64,000 nt of DNA, from NCBI RefSeq assembly GCF_058153355.1, contig NZ_CM177019.1; one strand, written 5' to 3'. Positions within the stretch are counted from its first letter, which is position 1; each line of letters begins with the position of its first letter. Shown here piece after piece: positions 21,093-39,496 of the stretch. Both the position numbers and the translations under genes were made by a program. The notes beneath the pieces were generated by a model, which was not told the DNA's origin, did no database searches, and was given only the letters and a program-made list of their open reading frames with translations.

Positions 21093-22049
21093 TCAATACC
21101 CCATATTTTTCTTCTTCTCTAACTCTTCTTTTGCGGTATCAGGCAGGTAAAGGGTGGACTTGGTCAGCGTCAGCTTTTCAGGCATCGTGCCGTCTTTTTT
21201 GTATTTCTCCAGCGCGTCAAAAGCAGGGCCTGCCATATTCGGCGTCAGTTCAACGCTGGCGTTCGCTTCGCCATCAATCATCGCTTTGTAGATGTCCGGC
21301 ACGCCGTCGATAGAGCCTGTCAGGATATCTTTGCCCGGTTTCAGGCCCGCTTCTTTAATTGCCTGAATTGCACCAATCACCATGTCATCGTTATGGGCGT
21401 AAACCATGCAGATGTTTTTGCCGTTGTTTTCCGCTTTGATAAAGCTCTCCATCACTTCTTTGCCTTTGCTGCGGGTGAAGTCACCTGACTGCGAGCGGAT
21501 AATTTTGATATTTGGCGCATTCTTAATGGCTTCGGCAAAGCCTTTCTTACGGTCAATGGCGACGCTGGCCCCAACGGTGCCCTGCAGCTCCACCACGTTA
21601 CACGGTTTGCCATTCACTTCTTTTACCAGCCAGTCACCGATCAATTTGCCTTCGAGGATGTTGTCGGCAGTGACGGTGGTCATATAGAGAGATTTGTCTT
21701 TCACATCGATGGAACGGTCAAGCAAGAAGACCGGGATTTCGGCATCTTTCGCCTCTTTTAATATCGGCTCCCAACCGGTCGCTACCACCGGAGCGATAAA
21801 GATCGCATCCACCCCTTGCGCGACGAAGGAACGTACCGCTTTAATCTGGTTTTCCTGCTTTTGCTGACCATCGGCAATTTTCAACGTAATTCCGCGCTTT
21901 TCGGCTTCACTTTTCGCCACATTGGTTTCTGCGGCGCGCCAGCCGGATTCCGATCCGACCTGCGAAAATCCTACGGTTAATGGAGCAGCCAACGCCATAG
22001 ACGACATGGCTGCCGAGACTGCAGAGACTACAAGTAAGCGTTTCCACAT
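21093..22049 (-). CDS. ytfQ: Periplasmic galactofuranose-binding protein YtfQ
   Basis: 318-aa product with signal peptide (MWKRLLVVSAVSAAMSSMALA) and sugar-binding periplasmic protein fold. Confidence 0.93.
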   Translation of the reverse strand: MWKRLLVVSAVSAAMSSMALAAPLTVGFSQVGSESGWRAAETNVAKSEAEKRGITLKIADGQQKQENQIKAVRSFVAQGVDAIFIAPVVATGWEPILKEAKDAEIPVFLLDRSIDVKDKSLYMTTVTADNILEGKLIGDWLVKEVNGKPCNVVELQGTVGASVAIDRKKGFAEAIKNAPNIKIIRSQSGDFTRSKGKEVMESFIKAENNGKNICMVYAHNDDMVIGAIQAIKEAGLKPGKDILTGSIDGVPDIYKAMIDGEANASVELTPNMAGPAFDALEKYKKDGTMPEKLTLTKSTLYLPDTAKEELEKKKNMGY

Positions 22050-22119
22050 AGGGTTGTCCTCGTCGGGGTAATTATTATTGGTGAAAAGATGTTCGCGAAA
22101 AAACTATAGACAATTCGTT

Positions 22120-22140
22120 ATGTAACGGATTGCGTTACAT
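22120..22140. promoter_or_regulatory. Palindrome ATGTAACG-N5-CGTTACAT in the ytfQ/ppa divergent promoter region (candidate LacI/GalR-type operator)
   Basis: atgtaacggattgcgttacat, a perfect 8-bp inverted repeat about 70 nt upstream of ytfQ. Confidence 0.3.
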
Positions 22141-22358
22141 CACACTTCAAAAAAGTAAATAAAACGTTAATCACAAGTTTGTAATCGCTTTCATCTCACT
22201 ATGAAAAATGCGGCTACGGTTATGGATTTTCCTGCTCTGTAAACCTTCTTAAAACTGGCGAAAAAGGAAAATGAAGACGAAAACAAGCGAAGACATTCGG
22301 CGCGAGTTGGCTATAATACTCGGCACTTGTTTGCCACATATTTTTAAAGGAAACAGAC

Positions 22359-22889
22359 ATGAGCTTACTCAACGTCCCTGCGGGTAAAGATCTGCCGGAA
22401 GACATCTACGTTGTTATTGAGATCCCGGCTAACGCAGATCCGATCAAATACGAAATCGACAAAGAGAGCGGCGCACTGTTCGTTGACCGCTTCATGTCCA
22501 CCGCGATGTTCTATCCGTGCAACTACGGTTACATCAACCACACCCTGTCTCTGGACGGTGACCCGGTTGACGTACTGGTCCCGACTCCGTACCCGCTGCA
22601 GCCAGGTTCTGTGATTCGCTGCCGTCCGGTTGGCGTTCTGAAAATGACCGACGAAGCTGGTGAAGATGCGAAACTGATTGCTGTTCCGCACACCAAGCTG
22701 AGCAAAGAATACGATCACATCAAAGACGTTAACGATCTGCCTGAACTGCTGAAAGCACAGATCGCTCACTTCTTCGAGCACTACAAAGACCTCGAAAAAG
22801 GCAAGTGGGTGAAAGTTGAAGGCTGGGAAAACGCAGAAGCCGCTAAAGCTGAAATCGTTGCCTCCTTCGAGCGCGCAAAGAATAAATAA
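22359..22889 (+). CDS. ppa: Inorganic pyrophosphatase
   Basis: 176-aa product [45 protein letters not shown]... Confidence 0.97.
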
Positions 22890-23237
22890 GTTCTTCTAGT
22901 GCCATAACCCTGAACGCCGGGCTTCGGTTAGTAAGGGTTTTTTATGCCCGCGATAAATAAACTCTCTATTCCCCTATCATTATTCTCAGCGCTTGCAAGG
23001 CTTGAACGGTAAGAACAAGCAAACACGACCACCATTTTGCTGTTCATAGCCGCTTGCTGGAAATTAGCCGACCTCACTCATTCTCACCGTTCAAAGCATG
23101 CCCCCGTTTTACCCCTACGTAATTGTGAACGCCAGCAGAGTTTTTTATGCGTTTACGGATATGGAAAGCGGCTCGGAGAGAAAAGCTAAAGATAGGGAAG
23201 TTACAAAAAAAATCGCGAGATACATCGCATAAAACAA

Positions 23238-23263
23238 CGCCACCCGAAGGTGGCGTGCTTTTA
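23238..23263 (-). terminator. Rho-independent terminator downstream of ytfP
   Basis: cgccacc-cgaa-ggtggcg stem flanked by an A-tract and a T-tract (potentially bidirectional). Confidence 0.6.
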
Positions 23264-23266
23264 TTA

Positions 23267-37013: not shown

Positions 37014-37394
37014 TTATGCCGCACGTTCATCCCGCACTGCCAACACCTCAGGCAAATTCAACTCAATCCAGTCCGCCAGTGCAGCAACCTTTTCGCTCAC
37101 CTGCTCGCCCAGCGGCGTGAGGCTGTATTCCACATGCGGCGGCACCACCGGATAAGAGATACGGTTAAGAAACCCATCCTGCTCTAACGCCTGTAACGAC
37201 TGCGCAAGCATCTTTTCACTCACCCCACCCATCTTGCGGCGCAGGTCGCTAAAACGGTGCGTACCTTCGCGAAGCGCGACCAGAATCAATACCCCCCAAC
37301 GACTGGTGACGTGTTTCAACACCTCGCGCGACGGGCACTGTTCGGCGAAGAGGTTACCCTCTTTCAGTTGTTGCGACAGGCTAGCCTGGCTCAT
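37014..37394 (-). CDS. ytfH: HxlR-family transcriptional regulator YtfH
   Basis: 126-aa winged-helix protein (MSQASLSQQLKEGNLFAEQCPSREVLKHVTSRWGVLILVALREGTHRFSDL...). Confidence 0.9.
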   Translation of the reverse strand: MSQASLSQQLKEGNLFAEQCPSREVLKHVTSRWGVLILVALREGTHRFSDLRRKMGGVSEKMLAQSLQALEQDGFLNRISYPVVPPHVEYSLTPLGEQVSEKVAALADWIELNLPEVLAVRDERAA

Positions 37395-37481
37395 TCATAC
37401 TTACCTTTTTGTACGTACTTACTAAAAGTAAGTTTAGGTGGTAGCGTATTTAAACACAAGACAAACCGATGGAGGCTTCCC

Positions 37482-38342
37482 ATGATCGCAATTACCGGCG
37501 CAACCGGCCAACTTGGTCACCATGTTATTAACTCCTTACTGAAAACCGTTCCTGCCAGCCAAATAGTGGCTATCGCACGTAACCCGGCAAAAGCGCAGGC
37601 ATTGAGCGCGCAAGGCATTACTGTACGTCAGGCTGAATACGGCGATGAAGCCGCACTGACATCTGCGCTTCAGGGAGTGGAAAAACTGCTGCTGATCTCT
37701 TCCAGCGAAGTGGGGCAACGTGCCCCGCAGCATCAAAATGTTATTAATGCCGCTAAGGCGGCGGGCGTGAAATTTATCGCTTATACCAGCCTGCTACATG
37801 CTGATACCTCCCCGCTCGGCCTCGCCGATGAGCACATCGAGACGGAGAAAATGCTGGCTGTTTCTGGCATCGCTTACACCTTGCTGCGCAACGGCTGGTA
37901 CACCGAAAACTATCTCGCCAGCGCCCCGGCAGCACTGGAGCACGGCGTATTTATCGGTGCCGCGGGCGATGGCAAAATTGCCTCAGCTACGCGAGCTGAT
38001 TATGCGGTAGCTGCGGCGCGCGTAATTAGCGAAGCAGGTCACGAAGGCAAGGTTTATGAACTGGCAGGTGATAGCGCCTGGACACTGACACAATTAGCGG
38101 CGGAACTCACCAAACAGAGCGGCAAACAGGTTACCTATCAAAACCTGAGCGAAGCTGATTTCGCCGCGGCGCTGAAAAGCGTCGGTCTGCCTGACGGGCT
38201 GGCGGATATGCTGGCAGATTCTGACGTTGGCGCATCGAAAGGCGGCCTGTTTGATGACAGCAAAACGCTTAGCAAATTGATTGGCCGCCCAACGACAACA
38301 TTAGCCGAGAGCGTAAGCCATCTTTTTAATGTTAATAACTAG
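37482..38342 (+). CDS. ytfG: NAD(P)H:quinone oxidoreductase YtfG (NmrA-like SDR)
   Basis: 286-aa product from ATG 37482 (MIAITGATGQLGHHVINSLL...); Rossmann GxxGxxG motif. Confidence 0.92.
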   Translation: MIAITGATGQLGHHVINSLLKTVPASQIVAIARNPAKAQALSAQGITVRQAEYGDEAALTSALQGVEKLLLISSSEVGQRAPQHQNVINAAKAAGVKFIAYTSLLHADTSPLGLADEHIETEKMLAVSGIAYTLLRNGWYTENYLASAPAALEHGVFIGAAGDGKIASATRADYAVAAARVISEAGHEGKVYELAGDSAWTLTQLAAELTKQSGKQVTYQNLSEADFAAALKSVGLPDGLADMLADSDVGASKGGLFDDSKTLSKLIGRPTTTLAESVSHLFNVNN

Positions 38343-39473: not shown

Positions 39474-39496
39474 AAGATGCATTTAAAATACATCTT
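39474..39496 (+). promoter_or_regulatory. NsrR operator in the ytfE promoter
   Basis: aagatgcatttaaaatacatctt is a near-perfect match to the NsrR palindrome consensus, 27 nt upstream of the ytfE ATG. Confidence 0.8.

Follow-up and report, generated by a model that had tools for sequence, protein, structure and literature searches.

Introduction

Operators of the GalR family are 16-bp dyads, GTGNAANC.GNTTNCAC, with a central CG (PMC5110547). In the gal regulon, the operators of GalR and GalS are built from (A)TGTAAC half-sites that abut this central CG, and at mglB and galS a CRP site lies next door. LacI-family proteins are also known on split sites, as for CytR and for CcpA on cre_var, TGTAAA-Yx-TTTACA (PMC5263246). 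CytR recognizes the half-site TGCAA, uses a flexible linker that GalR and GalS are not known to have, and acts by anti-activation at operators closely tied to CRP sites, while for cre_var the only documented case is CcpA in Gram-positive bacteria. In the Rrf2 family, TGTAA-x9-TTACA is the operator of HypR, SifR, and SaiR (PMC9218516). Operators of this HypR/SifR/SaiR/YwnA type control quinone, hypochlorite, or redox detoxification genes, and repression at them proceeds by promoter occlusion. Finally, class II CRP sites have the form TGTGA-N6-TCACA.

The palindrome described here, in the ytfQ promoter of Escherichia coli, resembles each of these systems in part. It shares the (A)TGTAAC half-site and a neighboring CRP-like site with the gal operators and lies in a GalR-bound promoter reported to be regulated by GalR and GalS; unlike them, it has 7 bp between its half-sites, and it is not among the published predicted or ChIP-inferred GalR sites. 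Inverted LacI-type half-sites with extra bases between them recall CytR operators and cre_var. Its arms and spacing match the Rrf2 operators exactly (TGTAA-CGGATTGCG-TTACA), and the extended form ATGTAAC-N7-GTTACAT is found at the starts of YwnA-like Rrf2 genes in metagenomes, but the target of the palindrome is a sugar transporter and no Rrf2 gene adjoins it. With regard to class II CRP sites, a 16-mer at a predicted position of about -40.5 overlaps the palindrome, fits this class and resembles the araBAD site, whereas the palindrome itself is centered 6.5 bp downstream of the center of that CRP site.

An inverted repeat in the ytfQ/ppa intergenic region

A preliminary description of the window, the whole 64-kb stretch of DNA analyzed here, had reported a perfect inverted repeat in the ytfQ promoter region. 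Direct reading bears this out: positions 22120-22140 read ATGTAACG GATTG CGTTACAT and lie in the 309 bp of E. coli DNA between the divergent genes ytfQ and ppa, although the eighth base pair of the repeat turned out not to be conserved. The window DNA is that of E. coli, with a match in 5425 of 5426 complete genomes; ytfQ and ppa are both annotated under these names. The features of the region are as follows.

21093-22049, minus strand: ytfQ coding sequence, encoding the galactofuranose/arabinofuranose-binding protein, the regulated gene (open reading frame; RefSeq annotation of identical DNA)
22120-22140, no strand assigned: palindrome ATGTAACG-N5-CGTTACAT, read directly from the window
22120-22126 and 22134-22140 (arms), 22127-22133 (spacer): conserved unit ATGTAAC-N7-GTTACAT, from the aligned sequences
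22359-22889, plus strand: ppa, inorganic pyrophosphatase, the divergent neighbor (open reading frame; RefSeq annotation)

A promoter-like site of ppa is found at 22290-22317. Beyond ppa, the interval 22890-23266 up to the next gene holds no open reading frame of at least 60 codons. In K-12 MG1655 the chpS-chpB toxin-antitoxin pair lies beyond ppa, with the end of chpB 80 bp from it; the strain of the window appears to lack chpSB.

A repeat search lengthens the arms of the palindrome to 11 nt at 91% complementarity (22117-22127/22133-22143). The palindrome is unique in the window with up to three mismatches allowed (0.21 matches expected), and no further copy was present in 0.27 Mb of K-12 covering the mgl/galS, galETK, galR/araE, and galP loci. 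Chance expectation was estimated by Markov-1 simulation of the 309-bp intergenic region, in which a perfect 8-bp inverted repeat with a spacer of 3-8 nt arose in 4.3% of simulated sequences (p about 0.04); such repeats number 25 across the whole window, where 6.8 are expected. Taken without its conservation, the palindrome is thus only weakly significant. A literature search found no description of its sequence or motif for E. coli.

Conservation of the palindrome across Enterobacteriaceae

From species-representative genomes, 80 ytfQ loci were taken, and an alignment of 22 sequences was made from the window and 21 other enterobacterial species. These represent about nine genera, namely Escherichia, Citrobacter, Enterobacter, Pseudocitrobacter, Superficieibacter, Pluralibacter, Mangrovibacter, and Phytobacter together with unnamed relatives. 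The 7-bp arms ATGTAAC and GTTACAT are invariant in 20 of the 22 sequences, with a mean pairwise identity of 0.948 per arm. Over the same alignment the mean pairwise identity is 1.0 for the TGTG of the CRP-like site described below, 0.985 for the -10 hexamer TATAGT, 0.72 for the spacer of the palindrome, and only 0.62-0.67 for the flanks and the 5' untranslated region. Read in the direction of ytfQ, the most conserved upstream block is GAA-TGTGATGTAAC-kCAnnnn-GTTACAT-N9-TTGTCTATAGT. The eighth base pair, G22127/C22133, falls outside this conservation; K-12 MG1655 carries G22127A and so has 7-bp arms, and in many genera the corresponding base is T. Since this pair varies, the conserved unit is ATGTAAC-N7-GTTACAT.

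At every locus where the palindrome is present, its center lies 22 bp from the first T of TATAGT. Enterobacteriaceae bacterium RIT691 has a ytfQ 5' untranslated region that exceeds that of the other genera by about 110 bp, and the module of CRP site, palindrome, and -10 hexamer is kept there with identical internal spacing. Within E. coli, a 51-bp core is the same as that of the window in 4613 of 5424 complete genomes. The most divergent E. coli allele, from strain N50, has five differences from the window over these 51 bp: a single arm position (plus-strand GTTACAT becomes GTTACTT), the eighth-pair base, and three flanking bases. The identity class of 90-95% that includes the N50 core comprises 116 of the 5424 genomes.

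Outside this group, the palindrome was absent from the ytfQ loci fetched from Erwiniaceae, Pectobacteriaceae, Yersiniaceae, Aeromonas, and Vibrio. Pluralibacter gergoviae lacks both arms and keeps the TGTGA, the CA of the spacer, the -10 hexamer, and both GalR operators. As the arms have been lost there and the rest kept, they constitute a separable module and not a part of the basal promoter; likewise, retention of the spacer CA in an armless species indicates that the CRP site and the palindrome are two overlapping but separable elements. Conservation of the arms across about nine genera upholds the earlier view of the palindrome as a genuine cis-element of the ytfQ promoter, and we consider it very probably a regulator-binding site.

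Architecture of the ytfQ promoter

Three further features place the palindrome within the core promoter.

22103-22108, minus strand: -10 hexamer TATAGT with TC before it (TCTATAGT), invariant in the aligned sequences
22096, minus strand: predicted transcription start, a G 7 nt past the -10 hexamer, placed from the position of the -10 only
22129-22144, minus strand: CRP-like 16-mer TGTGA-TGTAAC-GCAAT, a pattern match centered at about -40.5, a class II position

TATAGT is the only good -10 hexamer in the ytfQ promoter, and reading of the sequence disclosed no recognizable -35 hexamer. The TC ahead of the -10 would fit a sigma-S-compatible C at -13, and ytfQRT-yjfF has been found to be RpoS-dependent in EDL933 (PMC2907692). 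One published start-site dataset has no ytfQ entry, and we infer the start from the -10 hexamer. If G22096 is +1, the ytfQ ATG would lie at +48 and the palindrome would span -44 to -24, with its center at -34.

The CRP-like 16-mer shares bases with the spacer of the palindrome and with its promoter-distal arm. Its left half agrees with the CRP consensus at 5/5 positions and its right half at 2/5 (3/5 in three genera). Conservation of the TGTG is 100%, and the right-half CA does not vary either, P. gergoviae included; a CRP right half-site would call for just such a fixed CA within a spacer that varies elsewhere. The K-12 araBAD site, TGTGA-CGCCGT-GCAAA, has the same form. In a cya mutant, ytfQ and ytfR expression was 3.6-fold and 5.2-fold lower, respectively (PMC4512719). 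The palindrome itself, read as TGTAA-N9-TTACA, belongs to neither the N6 nor the N8 class of CRP sites and was rejected as a CRP site in its own right. From these elements, the ytfQ promoter reads as a sigma-70/sigma-S promoter that has a good -10 and a predicted class-II-type CRP site and lacks a -35 hexamer.

A distal CRP-like sequence, TGTGATTAACGTTTTA at 22160-22175 (center about -71.5), is confined to the Escherichia/Citrobacter/Enterobacter group and shares bases with an IHF-like sequence, ATTAACGTTTTAT, whose TTAAC core is kept in nearly all aligned genera.

Operators of the known ytfQ regulators

The region contains sites for GalR/GalS and AraC apart from the palindrome.

22032-22047, no strand assigned: canonical GalR operator, OI-like, AAGTAAGCGTTTCCAC; 15.4 bits, in ytfQ codons 1-6, center +57.5
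22179-22194, no strand assigned: canonical GalR operator, OE-like, TTGTAATCGCTTTCAT; 16.6 bits, center -90.5
22200-22236, minus strand: AraC-type half-sites AGCCGCATTTTTCATA (22215-22200) and AGCAGGAAAATCCATA (22236-22221), a direct repeat with a 21-bp period

GalR sites were scored as 14-mers with a matrix made from 18 ChIP-derived sites other than the ytfQ site (PMC5110547), which themselves range from 11.8 to 19.8 bits. The 14-mers at 22033-22046 and 22180-22193 score 15.4 and 16.6 bits. In the same study, the ppa/ytfQ region gave a GalR ChIP-chip peak with a ratio of 22, the third highest listed; the motif assigned to this peak, GTGGAAACGCTTACT, is the OI-like operator, and ATGAAAGCGATTACAA, the OE-like one, is also listed for ytfQ in its Table S1 (PMC5110547). 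Both canonical operators, although published for ytfQ in that work, had been missed in the preliminary description. The upstream operator was present in 23 of 23 loci scanned, at varying distance. In the window the centers of the OE-like and OI-like operators are 147 bp apart (14.0 helical turns), an arrangement reminiscent of the OE/OI repression loop of gal; other genera have 231-244 bp or 132-133 bp between the two. The downstream operator falls in ytfQ codons 1-6 (MWKRLL), so that its conservation may partly reflect coding constraint. Elsewhere in the window, a 13.7-bit match to the GalR matrix at 37865-37878 (TGGCATCGCTTACA), inside a qorB-like open reading frame, is the qorB site predicted in PMC5110547.

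The palindrome had been described as having a LacI/GalR-like flavor, and this is half right. Both of its arms are ATGTAAC, as in the mglB, galS, and galE operators, and thus carry the TGTAA(N)C half-site preferred by GalR and GalS; the 16-bp dyad with central CG is missing. Motif comparison with GalR/GalS operators, the check proposed at that time, went against a canonical site: the best 14-mer overlapping the palindrome scores 5.5 bits, well below the 18 ChIP-derived sites, the window holds 83 equally good 14-mers, and the half-sites are 5 bp too far apart. Nor is the palindrome one of the 165 GalR operators predicted in PMC5110547. The ChIP-chip peak spans the palindrome and both canonical operators, 56 and 90 bp away, and does not separate them.

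AraC control of ytfQ has been reported (Stringer 2014, as cited in PMC10191376). The two AraC-type half-sites match AGC-N7-TYCATA, like araI1 (AGCATTTTTATCCATA) in K-12, and appear consistent with that report. They lie 60-115 bp from the palindrome and their motif is unrelated to it, and an AraC site was rejected as an identity for the palindrome. None of the canonical motifs of CRP, AraC, and GalR explains the palindrome. It was noted before that no cognate regulator gene is obvious in the window; galR, galS, araC, and crp, the genes of the regulators known to act on the ytfQ promoter, are indeed all located outside it.

Alternative explanations for the palindrome

Several readings other than a repressor operator were weighed. 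That the palindrome is a functionless product of chance we regard as the least probable, for even though a perfect 8-bp inverted repeat turns up in about 4% of simulated intergenic regions, its arms are about as conserved as the -10 hexamer over about nine genera and the 51-bp core is identical in the great majority of E. coli genomes (4613/5424). A canonical LacI/GalR-family operator, occupied in the standard mode by a single dimer of GalR or GalS, is hardly more credible. The half-sites are those of the mglB and galS operators and GalR is bound to the ppa/ytfQ region in vivo, but the 7-bp spacer in place of a 16-bp central-CG dyad, the score of 5.5 bits against 11.8-19.8 for true sites, and the presence of two nearby canonical operators that already account for the ChIP peak all speak against it. 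It is also very doubtful that the palindrome acts as a nucleic-acid hairpin, either as an RNA stem-loop in a transcript started upstream or as a DNA cruciform. Predicted folding is appreciable (-9.2 to -10.5 kcal/mol, z-score -2.1 to -3.6), but the palindrome lies upstream of the inferred starts of both ytfQ and ppa, its stem is A+T-rich, and there is no T-tract and no predicted terminator. No Rfam family matched (best 22 bits against a threshold of 60), the eighth pair is lost in K-12 and in many genera without compensation on the other side, and the arms, which never vary, show no covariation. By terminator prediction, Rfam, and covariation, the palindrome bears the marks of neither an intrinsic terminator nor a structured RNA.

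Two further readings are improbable to a lesser degree. The dyad could be incidental, a composite of constraints with no dedicated factor in which CRP binding conserves the distal arm and -35 contacts of RNA polymerase the proximal arm; the interleaving of the palindrome with the CRP-like site and its fixed position relative to the -10 would fit this. The N6 spacer of CRP sites is normally without sequence constraint, however, and it is there that the distal arm sits. The proximal GTTACA, at -30 to -25 and 12 bp from the -10, cannot serve as a -35 hexamer, the probability that two 7-bp blocks are exact reverse complements by accident is about 6e-5, and P. gergoviae has the CRP half-site and -10 with no arms. 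We find this composite unlikely. Slightly less so, though still unlikely, is an activator site that stands in for the missing -35. The ytfQ promoter has no -35 hexamer, and strictly fixed spacing to the -10 is expected where activators touch RNA polymerase. Against this, the class II position is already taken by CRP at -40.5, with which a dimer at -34 would collide. For dyad-symmetric activators the usual location is near -41.5 or further upstream, and the palindrome center at -34 departs from this; P. gergoviae, moreover, keeps the remaining promoter without the palindrome. Taken alone, a center at -34 would be compatible with activation too.

A predicted repressor operator within the core promoter

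With modest confidence, we take the palindrome to be probably a repressor operator that lies within the ytfQ core promoter and occludes CRP and RNA polymerase. In this model, protein binding and repression are what we infer. A dimeric protein would recognize ATGTAAC and GTTACAT, with half-site centers 14 bp apart, and would cover -44 to -24. Its major-groove contacts would fall at about -40.5 and -27.5 and those of CRP at about -46 and -35, so that the two sets would interleave. The right half-site for CRP and the place of sigma region 4 would both fall under the dimer, which in this position should exclude both cAMP-CRP and RNA polymerase, and the promoter would be shut. The palindrome would then supply a third input, beside the activators CRP and AraC and the looping or repression exerted by GalR.

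If the palindrome is a repressor operator, binding by GalR or GalS themselves through split half-sites is a tentative possibility, well short of the favored one, and is suggested by the GalR-type arms, by the occupancy of the region by GalR in vivo, and by analogy with the split sites of CytR and CcpA. In TGTAAC-N7-GTTACA, the half-sites are 5 bp, or half a helical turn, further apart than in the GalR dyad. In six gal-regulon promoters of K-12 (loci L081-L085), TGTAAC/GTTACA hexamers occur in excess: 1.8 kb hold nine, where 0.7 would be expected, and of the nine, six lie outside canonical operators. In the mglB leader, at about 2240539-2240556 of NC_000913.3, two direct copies of TGTAAC are 11 bp apart. 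No comparable split inverted pair was found at mglB, galS, galE, galP, or galR of K-12, and for a LacI-type dimer with its hinge helix the spacing is too great by 5 bp; both points speak against GalR/GalS.

Most of the remaining probability within the repressor reading goes to an Rrf2-like or other unassigned factor. One lead is that the palindrome may be bound by a winged-helix protein with specificity of the Rrf2 HypR/SifR/YwnA type. Positions 22121-22139 read TGTAA CGGATTGCG TTACA, an exact Rrf2 core in a 19-bp near-palindrome. A metagenome scan for the 21-mer ATGTAAC-N7-GTTACAT returned 122 sites at 120 loci, of which six are enterobacterial ytfQ promoters. At nine of the 122 sites, a full-length open reading frame with a YwnA-like recognition helix lies less than 700 bp away, and at several of these the 21-mer overlaps the start codon; three more sites have such an open reading frame cut by a contig end. 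All eight of the YwnA-like open reading frames scanned match Pfam Rrf2 at 98-112 bits, and their nearest structures include YwnA (1XD7). Its position at the starts of YwnA-like Rrf2 genes indicates that elsewhere the 21-mer serves as a bona fide operator of this Rrf2 subgroup.

Five of the other metagenome sites (L090, L157, L159, L160, and L196, on contigs of 62-69% G+C) share a recurrent 27-bp A+T-rich palindrome, AACATGTAACGTATTACGTTACATGTT. This sequence was rejected as an operator; at L157, L159, and L160 it lies directly past the 3' end of an open reading frame, and it looks REP- or terminator-like. Apart from the ytfQ, YwnA-like, and recurrent-palindrome sites, the scan returned singletons.

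A cognate Rrf2 gene is usually adjacent to such an operator and autoregulated. At the ytfQ loci inspected none was seen: the 3-kb upstream flanks of 13 enterobacterial loci contain neither an Rrf2 gene nor another regulator gene beside ytfQ, and ppa or an unrelated open reading frame is found instead. No enterobacterial genus is among those listed for plasmid-borne YwnA-like genes. As far as we know, the Rrf2 proteins of E. coli are IscR and NsrR only, and neither has a motif of the HypR/SifR/YwnA type; we assign little probability to either as the binder. A perfect 11-1-11 NsrR site, AAGATGCATTTAAAATACATCTT, is present at 39474-39496, where the ytfE promoter is expected. It is in a different register from the palindrome, and the NsrR ChIP-seq study of CFT073 (49 peaks) makes no mention of ytfQ; NsrR was rejected as a candidate on these two grounds.

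Other regulators with similar half-sites were also discarded. The TyrR box (TGTAAA-N6-TTTACA) and the GacA(UvrY) box (TGTAAG-N6-CTTACA) are 18-bp sites in which TGTAA and TTACA are 8 bp apart; in the palindrome they are 9 bp apart, a spacing invariant across genera. For the motifs of HexR, PadR, LexA, NarL, LysR-type regulators, and BirA, either spacing or half-site does not fit. YtfH, an HxlR-type regulator encoded in the window (37014-37394, minus strand), was rejected because its own intergenic repeat is unrelated. This repeat, ACTTACCTTT-N15-AAAAGTAAGT at 37399-37433 between ytfH and the qorB-like gene, is plausible as the YtfH operator.

Significance

In kind, the palindrome appears to be an ordinary element, a putative transcription-factor operator, in a very well-studied organism. 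The system that it would control, ytfQRT-yjfF, is the only E. coli importer known to be specific for sugars in the furanose form. The corrected map of the ytfQ promoter, with its GalR operators, AraC half-sites, CRP site, and -10, is useful for annotation and promoter engineering.

We suggest, tentatively, that the palindrome reflects either an unrecognized enterobacterial regulator of a furanose-sugar transporter with HypR/YwnA-like specificity or GalR/GalS acting on split sites interdigitated with CRP. Split-site binding by GalR/GalS, if true, would amount to CytR-like anti-activation, a mode never described for the classical gal repressors, and would account as well for the surplus of orphan TGTAAC hexamers in the promoters of the gal regulon. 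The ytfQ promoter already integrates CRP, AraC, GalR/GalS, and RpoS, and none of these explains the near-invariant palindrome. The palindrome thus points to a missing input in a closely studied network, which may be a new regulator-operator pair or a non-canonical mode of action of the gal repressors.
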